DNA from: an uncultured Bacilli bacterium
GTDB taxonomy: Bacteria > Bacillota_I > Bacilli_A > RF39 > UBA660
DNA length: 64,000 nucleotides
Assembly: GCA_934101865.1 (NCBI GenBank)
Contig: CAKOSA010000002.1
Span: 17,929-81,928, forward strand
Reading direction: 5' to 3'
Shown: positions 46,363 through 51,706 of the stretch, one piece after another
Layout of the letters: each line of letters starts with the position of its first letter
Numbering within the stretch: position 1 is the first letter of the stretch
Notes under the pieces: model-generated
The model's input: only the letters and a program-made list of their open reading frames with translations
Database searches by the model: none
What the model was told of the DNA's origin: nothing
Position numbers and translations under genes: made by a program

Positions 46363-47130
46363 TCACAAAATCCTCTTATAATTCTCCACACTCTTAAGAA
46401 TACTCTTCTCCTTCTTCTCCTTAAATTTCTCGTGCCTCTCCTCTTCTTCTCTCTCCTTAATCTTGTCAAGGGCAGAATTCGTAATCTGACTCCTAAGAAC
46501 ATTCTCTGCTGCAAAAGAAATAGCCTCACACATCTTAAGCTGATAACAAATATAAAACGTAATCAAACTACTAAGAACAACCCTAATATCCGTCTCCGTC
46601 ACAAAGTCCTCACCCTCATAATACTCCCCCTCAAACCTAACCGGAAATAAATTAATCTCCAAAAAATCAAAAGAAGTCGACGAATAATAATGATTATAAT
46701 ACACATTAATCTCGCTATAATTCATCTCCAAAACACTTTTCTCAATGTACGTTTCAATCTCACTAAAACGCGTAATAAACTCATCTTTCGCTAACTTCAA
46801 AACCACCGTCTCGTCCATAAATGTAATCTTTGAACCAATAATAATCTTGTGAGCCGTCTTATCCTTCCGAATCTGCCTACTAACCGCTGAATTAAAGTTC
46901 CCACAGAACCCATAATCATTCGCAATATAAATATTAAGTTTCGGTTTGTCCCTATCGGGGGTAAGAACCTTTTTGTCCAAAACCAAGTTCTTATTATAAA
47001 CAATCCTACTAAGTATCCGCGTAATCTCTACTCCAACATTCTTATATTTCTCAGCCTTTTTCCTCGACTTATCAACATTAAGAAGAGCGTGGAAGTTCAT
47101 AACCTTAACAACATTCTTAATCTTCGCCAT
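46363..47130 (-). CDS. F1 gamma-like subunit (divergent, 255 aa)
   Basis: The N-terminal helix is MAKIKNVVKVMNFHALLNVDKSRKKAEKY (compare gamma: I..V.....IT.AM.MVAA.K..KA). The C-terminal helix is AISFAAENVLRSQITNSALDKIKE (compare ASRM.AM..AT.NA..). The SD is AGGAGG. Confidence 0.6.
   Translation of the reverse strand: MAKIKNVVKVMNFHALLNVDKSRKKAEKYKNVGVEITRILSRIVYNKNLVLDKKVLTPDRDKPKLNIYIANDYGFCGNFNSAVSRQIRKDKTAHKIIIGSKITFMDETVVLKLAKDEFITRFSEIETYIEKSVLEMNYSEINVYYNHYYSSTSFDFLEINLFPVRFEGEYYEGEDFVTETDIRVVLSSLITFYICYQLKMCEAISFAAENVLRSQITNSALDKIKEREEEERHEKFKEKKEKSILKSVENYKRIL
46950..46962 (-). repeat. Exact copy of 13-mer ACCCCCGATAGGG (inside gamma-like gene)
   Basis: The plus strand reads CCCTATCGGGGGT. 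It encodes T-P-D-R with the same codons (ACC CCC GAT AGG) as the folD copy. Confidence 0.9.
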
Positions 47131-47139
47131 AATAACCTC

Positions 47140-47682
47140 CTATAATTTCTTATAGTCCTTCTTTTTCTTAAGATGTTCCTGTTTTACAACAATATCATTA
47201 AGAAGTTTAAACAAATAATAAGTAAAATACAAAAATACAAACAAAATAAGAAGACCCAGTATAATCATAGTAAAAATATTAGCATACTCGTGTGTTAAAT
47301 AAGTATAAAGCATATTAATAGCAACAATACCCAAACTACTAAGTCCCACAAAGAACAAATTATCCGGAATCTTTTCATAATTCTTCGTTAAAATATCCGA
47401 TAAAAGAATCAAAACAAGAACAATCACAAAATATATAGGATTCATTTCTTGGAATGTTGCAATACACCATACAAGGAAAATATAAGCCACTGAAACCAAA
47501 CTAAAAGCAAGCACACTTTTGTTATCCATTCCCAAAAATAAACCATAAAACTTAATCTTACTACTATTAACCTGATACTTCTTCAAAGTAAGCTTTATAA
47601 ACACCGCCAGTACTACCAAAAAGATAATACCAACCATAGCAAAGTTACTAATACCATAAATAATATTCATATACTTTTCCAT
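47140..47682 (-). CDS. Polytopic membrane protein (about 5 TM, 180 aa) of the F1-like operon; not a recognisable a subunit
   Basis: The protein is hydrophobic throughout and has a K-rich C-terminal tail. It contains no Arg at all, so the conserved a-subunit Arg is absent. It starts 2 nt after the epsilon-like stop. Confidence 0.6.
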   Translation of the reverse strand: MEKYMNIIYGISNFAMVGIIFLVVLAVFIKLTLKKYQVNSSKIKFYGLFLGMDNKSVLAFSLVSVAYIFLVWCIATFQEMNPIYFVIVLVLILLSDILTKNYEKIPDNLFFVGLSSLGIVAINMLYTYLTHEYANIFTMIILGLLILFVFLYFTYYLFKLLNDIVVKQEHLKKKKDYKKL

Positions 47683-47684
47683 AA

Positions 47685-47942
47685 CTATCCCTCTTTTATC
47701 ATCAAATTAAACACATTCTTACTATTCATATAGAAAGCCCTAATATCCCTATAACTAATATCAACACTCTCTCCCTTAATATCAACACTACCCTCTATCT
47801 CACCAATAATAGACAAATAATCCTCCATAATAAGCAAATTATAATCCTGACTAGTTATTCTAATATACTTAACATTATCATACTCTACTAACCCCTTGTT
47901 AAGGTCAAATACCCTAACCCTAATACCACTACTATTAACCAT
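47685..47942 (-). CDS. F1 epsilon-like subunit, beta-sandwich N-domain only (85 aa)
   Basis: [51 protein letters not shown]...[14 protein letters not shown] follows the epsilon N-domain strand pattern. It lacks the C-terminal helical hairpin. Its start overlaps the beta-like stop (ATGGTTAA). Confidence 0.5.
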
Positions 47943-49287
47943 TGTACTTACCTATAAACAAGAACTTGCTCTCTTCAACATCATCTAAAGTACCATTAAG
48001 AATATTCTCAACATCATTTAAAACATCCTCAATCTTAACAAACTGTCCAGGGATATTAGTATAAGCTTCCGCAACAAACATCGGTTGGGAAAAATAATAT
48101 TTAAGTTTACGAGAACGATAAAAAATTCTCTTATCCTCTTCACTAAGTTCCTCTATACCAAGAATAGCAATAATCTCTTCCAGTTCCTTGTACCTAGTCA
48201 AATACCTAAGAACCTCTGTAACAAGATTATAATGCCTTTCACCAATCTTATCAACATCAATAAGTTTAGAAGTAGACTTAAACACATCAATAGCCGGATA
48301 TAAACCAAGTTCTGCTACCTTTCTATCCAAAACAATCTGACCATCCATATAAGAAATAATCGTTTGTACCGCTTCATCATTAAAATCATCAGCAGGAATA
48401 TAAATAGCTTGGAAAGAAGTAATCGAACCATTCTCTGTTGAACTAATCCTCTCCTCAATCTTACTAATATCACTAGCCATATCAGCCGGATAACCATTCT
48501 CAATCAAAATTTGCTTAAGTTCCGTTGCAATCTCACTCTTAGCTTGCATAAAACGATAAATATTATCAATAAATAACAGCACATCTTGCTTCTTCTCATC
48601 CCTTAAATACTCCGCTAAAGTAAGACCAGCATATACACTCTTACTCCTAGATACCGGATTATCACCCATAACACCATATACCATACTCATCTTACTAAGA
48701 AGCTTCGAGTCCTTCATCTCCTTGTATAACTCATTACCTTCCCTACTTCTTTCTCCTGCACCAACAAAAACAGCGTGAGCATTAATAGAACTATAAACAT
48801 TATGAATAATCTCCTTAATAAGCACTGTCTTACCAACACCAGCACCACCCAAAAGCCCCATCTTAAAGCCCTTTTGAAGAGGAGCAAAAAAGTCAATAAC
48901 CTTAATACCCGTCCATAAAATATCACTATTAACAAGTGTGTCCTTTAAAGAAATAGTCCTATTATCAATATTTCTCTTCTTAACACTCTTCAAAGTCTTA
49001 CCATCCGTAGGATAACCATAAGAATTAAAAATCCTTCCCAAAATCTTATCCGAGTACTCAATCAAAATCCCTTCTGATACCCTAACAACCTTACTACCCT
49101 TTCTAAGGCCGTGATTACTACCAAGCGATATACAAGTTGCACTAATATTATTAATAGAAACAACCTCAAACACATACTCATCATTATCCTTAACTTGTAA
49201 AATCTCCCCAATCTTAACATTACTATCACTAAGAATAACCTCTATACTAATATCAAATATCGATATAATCTTACCAACAACTGCCAC
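47935..49287 (-). CDS. F1 beta-like catalytic subunit (450 aa)
   Basis: Motifs: the Walker A motif [60 protein letters not shown] and [12 protein letters not shown]. It has a GTG start behind an AGAGGTGAAGG SD. Confidence 0.85.
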
Positions 49288-50632: not shown

Positions 50633-50634
50633 CC

Positions 50635-51393
50635 CTATTCATTCCTCTCACTTATACTAAAATCATATACCCTGTTCTTGTACATAATCTTAATACCCCT
50701 ATAAATACTACTATCATAAATCGTCTTTACATTTTTGCCGTATTTATTATAATTCTCATCTTTCTTGCCAACCATTACCCTAATAGTAGGATCGTTCAAA
50801 CTAACAAGCTGATCCAAATAATCAATAAAGTTATCAATACTAGTATCAACACTAACACTCTTAAACATCTCATATATCTTATACTCTTCATCATTTAAAA
50901 GTTCCCTAACTTTCTTGTCCTGATTACTAGCACACTTTATATCATATATAACATCACTCTTAAACTTCCTTTTAAGCCTCTTACAGAAATCAAACCTATT
51001 ATCACTCTTTGCAAACTTCACAAAGTCCTTAACTAAGGCATTGTAGTCAATAACAAAGTTCTCATCTATCTTTCGGTTAAGTTCAAATACACCCTTATCG
51101 TGATACTTCGTCTTTGAAAGTAAATCAATAACATCCGTATCAAAATCATACTTATTACTTATTTTTTCCTCATTATTCTCTTTAATTTCTTCTTCTCTAC
51201 TTTTTATAAGTTCGTCAATCTCATTAAGTTTATTTTCCTTTTCATTAATAAGTTCATCATATCCTTGTAGTTTATTGACGAAATAAGACTTTGTCTGGTC
51301 ATTAACGATAGCCACTGTCTTTTTAAAGATAAGAAACATAAAGAGAACTAATACTGAAATGACCACACAAGATATAATAAATACTATAATCAT
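50635..51393 (-). CDS. b-like / delta(OSCP)-like fusion stator subunit (252 aa)
   Basis: An N-terminal TM (IIVFIISCVVISVLVLFMFLIF) is followed by a charged coiled coil (b-like). The C-terminus IRVMVGKKDENY...IYDSSIYRGIKIMYKNRVYDFSI resembles the delta/OSCP C-terminal D.sliGG..i..gd.viD.S motif. The TAATG overlap links it to the c-like gene. Confidence 0.5.
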   Translation of the reverse strand: MIIVFIISCVVISVLVLFMFLIFKKTVAIVNDQTKSYFVNKLQGYDELINEKENKLNEIDELIKSREEEIKENNEEKISNKYDFDTDVIDLLSKTKYHDKGVFELNRKIDENFVIDYNALVKDFVKFAKSDNRFDFCKRLKRKFKSDVIYDIKCASNQDKKVRELLNDEEYKIYEMFKSVSVDTSIDNFIDYLDQLVSLNDPTIRVMVGKKDENYNKYGKNVKTIYDSSIYRGIKIMYKNRVYDFSISERNE

Positions 51394-51641
51394 TAGTAAG
51401 TTACAAGTGGATTAAAGAATAATAGTAAGAAACAAAATGCAAATAAGAATAGTAAAAATGTAGCTGTAATGATAAGAATAGTCATAACTGAGTGTACAAC
51501 ATCGTTCTTAGTCTCGGGATTTCTTCCCACAGCCTCGGCTACTCTCCCACCAAGAATACCTACTCCTATTCCTAGTCCTAAAAATGAGAGGCCTATCATA
51601 ATTCCAATAGCAATCGCTGTATTTGATAATATCGTTTCCAT
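51393..51641 (-). CDS. Fo c-subunit-like hairpin protein lacking the ion-binding carboxylate (82 aa)
   Basis: Helix 1 is Gly-rich ([16 protein letters not shown]), and the loop [12 protein letters not shown] resembles the c-subunit R(Q/N)PE loop. Helix 2 ([35 protein letters not shown]) contains no Asp or Glu. The SD is AAGGAAGGA. Confidence 0.65.
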
Positions 51642-51677
51642 ATTTGTCCTTCCTTTCTAACTCCCCTATTCTCCTTA

Positions 51678-51706
51678 ATTATATCAATTTTAAGAAAATG
51701 TGTCAA
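51678..51706 (-). promoter_or_regulatory. Consensus promoter of the F1-like ATPase operon
   Basis: On the minus strand, TTGACA is at 51706-51701, followed by a 17-nt spacer and TATAAT at 51683-51678. Confidence 0.65.

Follow-up and report, generated by a model that had tools for sequence, protein, structure and literature searches.

The window analysed here, a 64,000-nucleotide stretch from an uncultured Bacilli bacterium, carries a tight array of seven genes on the minus strand (46363 to 51641), which lies behind a promoter-like site and runs in the order c, P2, alpha, beta, epsilon, X and gamma (Table 1). The c and P2 genes overlap by 1 nt and the beta and epsilon-position genes by 8 nt, with gaps of 2–19 nt between the others. 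The seven open reading frames, their spacing and the consensus promoter, whose 12 matching positions were read directly in the sequence, are all as described in the original prediction. Pfam profiles back four of its subunit assignments, namely c, alpha, beta and gamma, whereas the b/delta match is weak and the epsilon-position protein has no match in Pfam or NCBIfam.

Table 1. Positions of the ATPase genes and of associated features within the window
Feature	Position	Strand	Size	Basis or description
Promoter-like site, TTGACA-17-TATAAT with extended -10 TG	51678..51706	-		12/12 consensus match only; 37 nt 5' of the c-like start codon
c-like subunit	51393..51641	-	82 aa	PF00137
P2, b/delta position	50635..51393	-	252 aa	Gene position, weak OSCP match
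alpha-like subunit	49307..50632	-	441 aa	PF00006
beta-like catalytic subunit	47935..49287	-	450 aa	PF00006
epsilon-position protein	47685..47942	-	85 aa	Gene position
X, polytopic membrane protein	47140..47682	-	180 aa	Five predicted transmembrane helices
gamma-like subunit, end of the operon in the window	46363..47130	-	255 aa	PF00231
D735, possible eighth component	44066..46273	-		Acidic, helix-rich, no transmembrane segment
Three paralogues resembling TasA/BsaA	39605..41726	-	210-226 aa	'IVAxxGATFAYF(S/T)A' N-terminus, SipW-type signal peptide
U1947, giant protein	4972..10815	-	1947 aa	One N-terminal membrane anchor, large repetitive extracytoplasmic part
U503, single-pass membrane protein with extracytoplasmic domain	3489..5000	-		Topology prediction
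U243, single-pass membrane protein	2748..3479	-		~200-aa extracytoplasmic domain; gene most often found right beside the ATPase cluster
SipW-type (archaeal/ER-type) signal peptidase I	2013..2642	-		TIGR02228, 96 bits (cut-off 51.85)

Catalytic head and central stalk

The alpha- and beta-like subunits score 235.5 and 226 bits on PF00006, respectively. The alpha-like subunit has an Arg finger and the Walker A motif GDKKTGKT, and spans residues 4–457 of E. coli alpha, with the ~56 C-terminal residues of canonical alpha missing. Its residues K175, T176 and R376 are conserved in 76–80 of the 80 family sequences, and the catalytic K, T, E, R and D of the beta-like subunit, which also retains the EELSEED loop, in 76–79 of 80. 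The closest PDB matches of the beta-like subunit are Bacillus-type F1 beta chains (371–381 bits), compared to 298 bits for beta of the M. mobile G1-ATPase. Consistent with what had been claimed from the motifs, which are indeed present, profile scores and residue conservation indicate that the pair is F1-type and that its catalytic sites look intact.

In NCBIfam, the alpha-like subunit falls below every cut-off (score/cut-off: PRK13343, 419/554; MMOB1660, 384/600; atpA, 371/484; alt, 352/750; MSC_0619, 316/520). The beta-like subunit misses the atpD cut-off by only 5 bits (457.5 versus 462.85), which some relatives exceed, and scores 418/752 on alt_F1F0, 408/570 on MSC_0618 and 357/850 on MMOB1670. 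These cut-offs, in addition to gene content and order, exclude an N-ATPase as well as a mycoplasma Type 2 or Type 3 cluster, in agreement with the contrast drawn originally. The architecture had also been thought undescribed, and a search of the searchable literature returned no description of this cluster.

The gamma-like subunit scores 78 bits on PF00231 (cut-off 39.9) and matches gamma chains in the PDB (E=2e-5 to 1e-2); it has 1098 database homologues, to some of which NCBI gives the name 'F0F1 ATP synthase subunit gamma'. The epsilon-position protein directly follows beta in all loci. Its alignment with residues 22–54 of E. coli epsilon by hhalign is not significant, and the register fits the region of the G-x-L-G-I-L-P-G-H-x-P motif. 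At 85 residues it would correspond in size to the N-terminal β-sandwich of epsilon only, without the C-terminal helices, which are inhibitory in F1. The lack of these helices would fit a hydrolysis-biased enzyme.

Putative membrane ring and stalk proteins

The c-like protein is a true relative of ATP-synt_C, as had been proposed: it scores 36.3 bits on PF00137 (cut-off 24), and its helix 1 and loop align with residues 12–45 of E. coli c (hhalign probability 95%). On all NCBIfam c-subunit models it stays below the cut-off. It forms a hairpin of two helices, of which helix 1 is Gly-rich, with an RNPE loop and a conserved terminal FNPL motif. The Gly-rich helix and the RNPE loop, a region that makes the gamma/epsilon interface in F1Fo, are nearly invariant in the family, and the gene shows the strongest constraint of the seven (dN/dS 0.015–0.06, a rough value as dS is saturated). 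At the position of E. coli Asp61 the window protein has Ala60. None of the 58 distinct family sequences has an Asp or Glu in the middle of helix 2, and the position equivalent to Asp61/Glu56 is of the A/S/T type in all of them.

No a-subunit gene lies in or beside the cluster in any of 80 species-level loci. To our knowledge, ion pumping by every known F-, V- or A-type ATPase needs the carboxylate of c and the Arg of the a subunit. The protein X had been described as free of arginine, which applies to the window protein (no Arg in 180 residues) but not to its homologues, which carry Arg at no conserved position. Homologue conservation analysis found no conserved Arg, Asp, Glu or other charged residue in the transmembrane helices of X, and its conserved residues are mostly aromatic, in addition to K34, G47 and S61. 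Sequence searches of Pfam, NCBIfam and the PDB gave no match for X, and hhalign found no similarity to E. coli a or AtpI. Its 317 database homologues have no functional name, the two named ones being 'hypothetical protein'. The best fold match of its AlphaFold2 model (pLDDT 74.5) in the PDB is subunit a of Bacillus PS3, with an E value of 1.3 and a TM score of 0.40. The alignments thus reveal no overlooked carboxylate or Arg conserved in the c-like protein or X, and no normal a subunit adjoins the cluster in relatives, so that the claimed lack of an ion path is upheld. As judged from these comparisons, the putative membrane ring of the operon is without a residue for moving protons or sodium.

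P2 lies between c and alpha in all loci, which is the position of atpF and atpH (b and delta). The protein comprises a transmembrane helix at its N-terminus, a long helix up to about residue 78 and a globular C-terminal part; a single-sequence AlphaFold2 model is confident for helix 2–78 only. The last 34 residues (217–250) match the OSCP profile of Pfam with an E value of 0.08, and hhalign aligns the same region, not significantly, with residues 139–165 of E. coli delta; a profile search of the PDB gave no match. In the low-confidence model, the stalk helix extends ~50 residues past the membrane, much shorter than that of canonical b, and P2 might not extend as far as the head of F1. The earlier assignment of b/delta and epsilon agrees with the gene positions, whereas sequence comparison supports it weakly. 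The alpha-like subunit retains its N-terminal segment, which is consistent with a retained peripheral stalk, in contrast to the alpha subunit of mycoplasma Type 3, from which this segment is absent (PMC12994834).

Distribution and surface-protein neighbours

Relatives of the gamma-like gene are present in 138 species-representative genomes, mostly of uncultured low-GC gut Bacilli or "Tenericutes", a common group in which the operon is conserved. In 80 of the 138, the species-level locus holds the gene set as one block, which answers the synteny check suggested originally; locus comparisons rest on these 80 fetched loci, and some neighbour counts on 79 or 55. The cluster is single-copy in the lineage. 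Nearly all loci have intact reading frames, the few splits or truncations lying at contig ends or in single metagenome-assembled genomes, and this holds across relatives with a gamma of only 40% identity. Across the seven genes dN/dS ranges from 0.015 to 0.4, rough values given the saturated dS and all well below 1, indicating that the whole set is under purifying selection. Its recurrence in 80 loci at such dN/dS values goes far beyond chance. Deep-branching relatives have the order c-P2-alpha-gamma-beta-epsilon-X, the canonical atpE-F/H-A-G-D-C order plus X. The order in the window is therefore derived, and cannot serve as the defining trait for which it had been taken.

The linkage between the ATPase and surface-protein genes, the context that tells most and one overlooked in the original prediction, is strong, although not universal. 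A gene of the U243, U503 or U1947 type lies within 10 kb of the cluster in 39 of 80 species loci, and 41 of 55 loci have U243, f12 or U503 as the first gene upstream; in some loci, such as L047, the cluster sits among housekeeping genes. U243 directly precedes c in 16 species loci and directly follows X in 17. U503 is the gene just before c in 12 and stands beside U243 in others. In many loci, among them nearly all of the deep branch, homologues of U1947 adjoin the ATPase genes; the deep-branch operon reads U1947-U503-c-P2-alpha-gamma-beta-epsilon-X-U243-GIANT13 at a locus GC of 24 to 59%. The linked giant proteins range from 1,700 to >2,350 residues. U503 and U1947 share a membrane-proximal domain (hhalign of the N-terminal regions, probability 93.8%, E=1.7e-7); no family match was found for U243, and no family or PDB match for U1947. 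In the window these partners are 36 kb away from the cluster (2748–10815). The paralogous surface-protein genes noted around the cluster do lie directly upstream (51805–54400), but are specific to the species group, and the conserved partners are other genes.

Downstream, the ~285-residue N-terminal core of D735 represents a conserved gene directly after gamma, and 47 of 79 species loci have a D735-like gene as the next one after the cluster. D735 may be an eighth component; it has a promoter-like site of its own (11/12, 46319–46291), and a terminator-like hairpin (44034–44058) overlaps its 3' end. Searches gave no family or PDB match for it and no similarity to ATP synthase subunits. The three TasA-like paralogues are 33–37% identical to one another and match TIGR04090 and TIGR04088 weakly, below the NCBIfam cut-offs; 43 of 80 species loci have members of their family downstream of the cluster, with up to seven copies in tandem. 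Flp-like pilins directly follow gamma in 10 loci. The SipW-type signal peptidase belongs to one gene string with U1947, U503 and U243, which also contains an N_methyl pilin-like gene, and in two loci (L025 and L028) a homologue comes after the TasA-like array that lies downstream of the cluster. Its link to the ATPase is tentative, as it may be a general housekeeping peptidase.

Possible functions of the ATPase

The operon stands beside giant surface-protein genes in many species, which suggests that it probably powers a process at the surface. On balance, we favor a distinct conserved family of F-type rotary ATPases that would have kept the mechanical skeleton, lost the ion-translocating chemistry and come to power a surface apparatus. 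The skeleton would comprise an alpha3beta3 head whose catalytic sites are intact, a central stalk of gamma and epsilon, a ring of c subunits and, at the b/delta position, a stalk protein anchored in the membrane. We propose a motor in the cytoplasmic membrane driven by ATP hydrolysis, in which F1 would rotate gamma/epsilon together with the c-ring devoid of carboxylates, while P2 and probably X would form the stator. Through their transmembrane anchors, U243, U503 and the giant U1947/GIANT13 proteins might then receive torque or a conformational change, to power a process such as movement, adhesion, remodelling or assembly of a surface structure. ATP would thus probably be burnt for work at the cell surface, not for making or using an ion gradient; assembly, rotation, the hydrolytic direction and the coupling to surface proteins, like the repurposed mechanical ATPase proposed originally, are what we infer. 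The design logic is that of the mycoplasma F1-like ATPases: Type 2 drives gliding, and the MIB-MIP surface system depends on the Type 3 F1-like X0 ATPase. It is somewhat probable that the present family, likewise detached from ion translocation, has an origin separate from these mycoplasma types, in a Bacillota F1Fo operon.

The neighbours of the cluster, almost all secreted or membrane-anchored, could instead be the cargo of an export or assembly motor that uses ATP to translocate, insert or polymerise them. The giant adhesin-like proteins (on both sides of the deep-branch operon), the TasA-like SipW-type proteins and the Flp-like pilins would be its substrates, with the carboxylate-free c-ring and X as part of a conduit or platform, and the signal peptidase and N_methyl pilin-like gene in the U1947 string would suit such a role. 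Type III export ATPases have a common ancestry with F/V-ATPases, alpha and beta score 143–216 bits on FliI/SctN models, and the FliI/FliH/FliJ ATPase serving type III export would be a parallel. We regard this as unlikely: the ordinary N-terminal hydrophobic signals or anchors of the neighbours fit Sec-dependent export, we know of no dedicated ATPase needed by TasA-type fibres in Bacillus, and the loci showed no FlhA/FlhB-like export-gate homologues. Known translocases, moreover, are not built in this way: a complete c-ring with a central stalk and a stalk protein is a design for rotation.

Less likely still is a divergent housekeeping F-ATPase that moves ions or another substrate by unconventional chemistry and energises the membrane in genome-reduced fermenters. 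The wide, single-copy conservation, the canonical order in deep branches, the near-threshold atpD scores, the housekeeping surroundings in some genomes and the NCBI name of gamma all speak for it, as does, weakly, the lack of other ATPase genes in the 64-kb window or 10 kb either side. Against it stand the c-like sequences devoid of a mid-membrane carboxylate, the missing a subunit and the lack of a conserved Arg in X, given what known ion pumps need, and tight linkage to giant surface proteins is unexpected for such a pump. In addition, the module occurs in loci of 36–59% GC, whose hosts are probably other Bacillota lineages, in which a standard ATPase is the rule. The operon might also be a functionless relic of an ATP synthase operon in the course of decay, which would suit the loss of the a subunit, of the carboxylate in c, of the C-terminal domain in epsilon and of the C-terminus in alpha. 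The chance of this is minimal, as the intact reading frames, low dN/dS, conserved catalytic residues and perfect promoter-like and ribosome-binding sites effectively refute it.

As for the host, the window also contains an N-acetylmuramoyl-L-alanine amidase, an LtaS-like gene, YfhO and GtrA. Most RF39 species are predicted to be walled (PMC10868615), and the walled host assumed originally is plausible.

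Subunit composition and loss of the ion path

The operon is real and conserved, and apparently an undescribed variant of the non-ion-coupled F1-like ATPase theme. All seven minus-strand ORFs were recovered by ORF listing at the coordinates originally assigned to them, with junctions of 1-nt and 8-nt overlaps or 2-19-nt gaps. The promoter-like site reported upstream of them is likewise present as a perfect TTGACA-17-TATAAT match with an extended -10 TG, and a Shine-Dalgarno sequence lies upstream of the c-like start codon in the window. No terminator-like hairpin was found in the window between the gamma gene and the next gene, which encodes the helix-rich acidic protein D735, a possible eighth component. 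A Rfam scan of the window returned no RNA families.

Profile HMM searches support the assignment of four of the seven proteins: c (PF00137), alpha and beta (PF00006) and gamma (PF00231) score above the Pfam cut-offs, whereas the 252-aa protein at the b/delta position (P2), the epsilon-position protein and the 180-aa membrane protein X have no significant family match in Pfam or NCBIfam. Against the NCBIfam equivalog models, beta falls just short of atpD (457.5 bits, cut-off 462.85). Alpha lies below all six alpha models (score/cut-off 371/484 for atpA and 419/554 for PRK13343), as do the gamma-like protein below atpG (45.9/194) and the c-like protein below atpE (44.9/71). The closest solved structures to beta are Bacillus-type F1 beta subunits (371-381 bits), with the beta of the Mycoplasma mobile G1-ATPase at 298 bits.

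Alignment to E. coli confirmed that alpha and beta look catalytically intact, as had been read from the sequence: Walker A and B, the catalytic Glu and the Arg finger are conserved in 76-80 of the 80 family sequences. The residues checked were Lys/Thr of Walker A, Glu-Arg of the GER motif and Asp of Walker B in beta, and Lys/Thr and the Arg finger in alpha. The DELSEED loop of beta reads EELSEED. Alpha spans E. coli residues 4-457, with the N-terminal segment kept and ~56 C-terminal residues missing; the gamma-like protein is ~30 residues shorter than canonical gamma, and the epsilon-position protein is devoid of the C-terminal helices of canonical epsilon.

The position of the peripheral-stalk genes is taken by one protein, P2, which combines a transmembrane (TM) helix with a long helix and is a putative b/delta counterpart. 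In its AF2 model, built from a single sequence and confident only in the long helix, the N-terminal TM helix runs on into this long helix as far as residue 78; short helices and C-terminal strands come after it. The last 27-34 residues resemble the delta/OSCP C-terminus by two methods (Pfam OSCP, E=0.08; hhalign to E. coli delta), neither of them significant. As a b-delta fusion, P2 found no match in a PDB profile search, and its hhalign comparisons with E. coli b and delta were not significant. D735, considered as a missing ATP synthase subunit, resembles none of b, delta, epsilon, gamma, AtpI and P2; neither D735 nor the giant membrane-anchored protein U1947 has a match in the PDB.

The original reading was of an ATPase with no ion path. 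By hhalign (probability 95%), helix 1 and the RNPE loop of the c-like protein correspond to residues 12-45 of E. coli c, a register that puts Ala60 at the position of E. coli Asp61. The carboxylate is indeed absent, with an A/S/T-type residue at that position and a wholly apolar helix 2 in 58/58 distinct c-like sequences. Across these 58 sequences, the only conserved charged or polar residues are E43, K45, D47 and H50, all in or beside the cytoplasmic loop. This loop and the Gly motif are nearly invariant, which, by analogy to known F1Fo structures, argues that the c-like proteins would still form a ring and contact gamma/epsilon. Beyond helix 2, at the predicted outer membrane face, the c-like protein ends in a nearly invariant FNPL motif. 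Such a C-terminal tail does not exist in E. coli c; in the c-like protein it may serve to contact partner proteins.

Nor is an a subunit encoded in or beside the cluster: no protein of the window cluster matches ATP-synt_A, and no a-like family occurs among the neighbours in the 80 fetched loci. The Arg-free character ascribed to X is true of the window protein, and the family has no conserved Arg, but homologues carry Arg at scattered positions. Among 23 divergent X sequences (alignment A2) no residue is invariant, and the conserved positions are mostly aromatic. Comparison of the X profile with the E. coli a and AtpI sequences was negative for a disguised a subunit or AtpI, as was a PDB profile search. 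The AF2 model of X, computed with 50 homologues (pLDDT 74.5), has five transmembrane helices; of the PDB folds, subunit a of the Bacillus PS3 ATP synthase ranks first against it, but with E=1.3 and TM 0.40 this match is statistically meaningless.

Coordinates of features in the window and in related loci
Feature	Coordinates	Details
SipW-type signal peptidase I, then 556-aa anchored protein	334-2642	TIGR02228, 96 bits (peptidase); same string as U1947-U503-U243
Homologues of U1947, U503 and U243	2748-10815	same strand; 36 kb from ATPase genes
Envelope genes	10985-12454 and 31227-36963	LtaS-like sulfatase-family, YfhO, GT2 glycosyltransferase, GtrA, Amidase_2 (N-acetylmuramoyl-L-alanine amidase) with SpaA-like domain
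Tandem duplication	26500-30300	~1.85 kb, 99.9% identity; each copy an identical 404-aa protein with N-terminal HTH_38
Two AAA_14+DUF4143 ATPase genes	36973-38241 and 55433-56647	39% identical; flank the cluster
Three tandem TasA/BsaA-like paralogues	39605-41726	210-226 aa, 33-37% identical; SipW-type N-terminus IVAxxGATFAYF(S/T)A
Schlafen AlbA_2 + HATPase_c_4 gene	41943-43616	between D735 and TasA-like genes
Terminator-like hairpin	44058-44034	overlaps 3' end of eighth gene
D735	44066-46273	minus strand
F1-like ATPase genes	46363-51641	minus strand, seven genes
C-terminus of c-like protein	51393-51420	FNPL
Promoter-like site	51706-51678	
Four paralogous secreted proteins	51805-54400 and 56831-60061	346, 508, 499 and 530 aa; conserved C-terminal domain GLMYLSDY..ASG
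Flp-type pilin-like genes	L030 10964-11185; L047 10950-11162; L039 5760-5999; 7 more loci	70-79 aa, KGQTLVEYVLI
N_methyl (type IV pilin-like) gene	L098 12302-12781	overlapping gene just beyond the window end, then SepF, DivIVA

Distribution and gene order of the family

The exact beta protein recurs on hundreds of contigs, up to 1.38 Mb in length, from human-gut metagenomes (Hadza, Nepal and others). Relatives of the gamma-like protein were found in 138 genomes in a scan of one genome per species, and 80 of the loci were fetched. The carriers, which we take to be RF39-type genome-reduced Bacilli from their GTDB names, bear record titles such as "uncultured Bacilli/Tenericutes/Mollicutes", Clostridium sp. 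CAG:914, CAG:302 and Firmicutes CAG:321; their taxonomy was read from these titles, several of which are clearly unreliable (loci of 26-28% GC labelled "Muribaculaceae"). Two clusters in one genome (L039 and L045), considered as paralogues, proved to be 96%-identical strain variants within one MAG.

Two gene orders exist among the loci. The order c-P2-alpha-beta-epsilon-X-gamma is found in at least 51 loci, the window among them, and c-P2-alpha-gamma-beta-epsilon-X in at least 12, carried by the relatives that have diverged furthest (gamma identity 40-50%, locus GC 24-59%). The latter is the canonical order atpE-(F/H)-A-G-D-C followed by X. Since the most divergent relatives keep the canonical order plus X, the order in the window is derived, gamma having been relocated.

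Among 1.84 billion representative proteins searched, the beta family comprises four or five clusters at ~60% identity (558-600 bits). Below it, a gap extends down to 370 bits (~42% identity), where canonical and other divergent betas start. Other divergent F1-beta-like proteins from metagenomes (P0246-P0263, outside the window) score only 455-520 bits against atpD; one of 648 aa (P0246) has a C-terminal extension, and another (P0253) lies near the Type 3 MSC_0618 family (526/570). These proteins suggest that further uncharacterised F1-like ATPase lineages exist.

Comparison with known F-type and F1-like systems

The mycoplasma Type 3 "F1-like X0" ATPase (MSC_0618/0619) of the MIB-MIP antibody-cleavage system likewise has seven genes, with alpha, beta, gamma, epsilon and membrane proteins without charged TM residues; it too is not an ion-coupled ATP synthase and is found in the Bacilli/Mollicutes radiation. 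The surface proteins to which it is genetically linked depend on it (PMC3369863, PMC12994834). However, its order in published descriptions is 12-TM protein-P2-gamma-epsilon-87-kDa protein-alpha-beta (P2 here being the 19/35-kDa protein of the published Type 3 set), with no c and no b/delta. By contrast, the window cluster includes a genuine c-like subunit and a TM-anchored protein at the b/delta position; the 5-TM X replaces the 12-TM protein, and no 87-kDa protein is present. The N-terminal helix of alpha, missing in Type 3, is kept in the window alpha, and the Type 3 HMM scores are far below the cut-offs (beta 408/570 for MSC_0618; alpha 316/520 for MSC_0619). General domain scans revealed neither MIB nor MIP among the window neighbours, which are themselves without Pfam domains.

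The closest functional analogy is the Type 2 idea of an ATP-driven F1-like motor plus giant surface legs. The Type 2 or G1-ATPase of M. mobile (MMOB1660/1670) is an F1-derived mechanical motor that moves the cell with giant surface Gli proteins (PMC11864180, PMC8406192). Yet this motor is cytoplasmic, forms dimeric chains and has no c-ring; its beta carries an N-terminal extension of ~30 kDa, which the window beta (450 aa) does not have. The scores against the Type 2 HMMs are below cut-off (beta 357/850, alpha 384/600), and the partner proteins are unrelated.

The canonical Bacillota F1Fo (atpIBEFHAGDC) is the nearest sequence relative of beta, and shares the order c-(b/delta)-alpha-gamma-beta-epsilon with the most divergent relatives of the window cluster. 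The catalytic residues, the DELSEED-like loop, the Gly motif of c and the RNPE loop are all kept in the window family. Nevertheless, the window cluster has no a, atpI or c carboxylate, a single 252-aa protein stands for b plus delta, and the 5-TM X is extra. N-ATPases (alternate F1Fo, atpDCQRBEFAG) are similarly a second operon of F type that is laterally mobile, has its genes in a non-standard order and encodes extra membrane proteins of small size. They keep an a subunit and an ion-binding (Na+) c subunit, and pump ions. Their order, beta-epsilon-Q-R-a-c-b-alpha-gamma, differs from that of the window cluster, which has no Q, R or a genes, and the window proteins fall well short of the alt_F1F0 HMM cut-offs (beta 418/752, alpha 352/750, c 17/131). 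FliI/SctN export ATPases are homo-hexamers encoded by a single gene, whereas the window has two paralogous subunits, alpha and beta, and the best FliI/SctN score is 216 bits against cut-offs of 380-620.

Membership in the N-ATPases, Type 2, Type 3 or FliI was thus rejected by HMM cut-offs together with gene content. Judged from sequence and context, the window cluster would work most like the mycoplasma F1-like X0 ATPases, yet it is not a member of them. The first reading had not recognised the architecture as a described system, and no description appeared in the literature searched, the coverage of which is incomplete; the RF39 bioenergetics literature found makes no mention of an RF39 ATPase.

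Surface-protein neighbourhood and proposed function

Clustering of all locus genes into families showed the ATPase genes to be surrounded by genes whose products are anchored in the membrane or secreted. In the deep-branching relatives, the genes form the string U1947-like (1,650-2,000 aa)-U503-[ATPase genes]-U243-second giant (>2,350 aa, cut by the locus end), and in a large group nearer to the window U1947-U503-U243-[ATPase]-D735-TasA-like. U1947, U503 and U243 have one N-terminal hydrophobic segment each and no known domain; the first two have a membrane-proximal domain in common (hhalign probability 93.8%). The gene directly upstream of c is U243, U503 or f12 (single-pass, 245 aa) in 41 of the 55 loci with enough flank. 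Directly downstream, the D735 core is found in 47 of 79 loci, U243 in 17 and a Flp-like pilin in 10, the last lying right after gamma in 10 species without a D735-like gene there. TasA-like proteins with a GATFAYFSA-type SipW signal peptide follow the cluster in 43/80 loci, in arrays of up to 7 copies. The paralogous surface proteins encoded directly upstream of the window operon were considered as functional partners and rejected: only ~16 loci carry the family, almost all of them in the species group of the window.

Altogether, the parts look like a complete rotary skeleton that lacks the ion chemistry. They comprise a catalytic head that is intact, gamma, a putative N-domain of epsilon, a putative c-ring whose F1-facing loop is conserved, the membrane-anchored P2 as stalk protein and X as polytopic membrane partner. 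We propose that ATP hydrolysis would drive this motor, and that its mechanical output would reach the co-encoded surface proteins through their membrane anchors, a scheme that mirrors the established or proposed roles of the mycoplasma Type 2 (gliding) and Type 3 (MIB-MIP) ATPases. From sequence and context, an ATP-hydrolysis-driven mechanical motor serving co-encoded surface proteins is the most economical reading, and the one towards which we lean. A bolder form of it is possible but tentative: an undescribed class of F-like rotary ATPase, "Type 4", in >130 species of prevalent uncultured gut Bacillota. Its carboxylate-free c-ring would be a purely mechanical membrane rotor, turned by ATP hydrolysis against P2/X, with rotation passed via single TM anchors to the giant surface proteins. 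The result would be a surface motor powered by ATP and independent of ion gradients, serving motility, adhesion cycling or remodelling of the surface in what are probably walled bacteria.

Instead of moving the same surface proteins, the ATPase might export or assemble them, which we consider rather unlikely. An unconventional housekeeping pump appears less probable still. The surface-protein linkage is not universal, with a U-type gene within 10 kb in only 39/80 loci; the L047 cluster sits among housekeeping genes, and no second ATPase was found in the window extended by 10 kb on each side. Nearest though it is to the Bacillota F1Fo in sequence, the window cluster lacks the defining c carboxylate and a subunit. 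That the genes are a relic is very improbable: the gene set is kept in all fetched loci, and dN/dS is 0.015-0.4 across all genes and lowest in c, values that are rough on account of saturated dS.

F-type ATPases are defined by rotation coupled to ion flow, and the only exceptions known to us are the mycoplasma Type 2 and Type 3 enzymes, which discarded the c-ring altogether. In the present family, the c-ring, central stalk and stalk protein appear to be kept under strong selection with the ion-binding chemistry gone, which poses the question of what a rotating proteolipid ring does when carrying no ions. It bears on the evolutionary rewiring of rotary motors, possibly including the origin of the mycoplasma enzymes, and on the biology of RF39-type bacteria, an uncultured and poorly understood group that is frequent in the guts of humans and animals. 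A few database source names call gamma and beta F0F1 ATP synthase or F-type ATPase subunits, and X a "hypothetical protein"; metabolic models may consequently assign a functional ATP synthase or proton pump to the carriers in error. With 7-8 genes, the complex is small and should suit heterologous expression and cryo-EM, and the linkage to surface proteins recommends it for experimental study.

Several other features of the window were noted. The envelope genes fit a wall of the Gram-positive type that contains lipoteichoic acid, and the duplicated HTH_38 protein may be an IS30-like transposase. Same-species strains (L001-L010) have extra AAA_14+DUF4143 copies and extra S508/S346 surface-protein pairs inserted upstream of the ATPase operon, which marks this region as strain-variable. 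The AlbA_2 + HATPase_c_4 gene is present in the window and in L005 and absent at the same place in L001-L004 and L006-L010, and therefore looks like a recent insertion.
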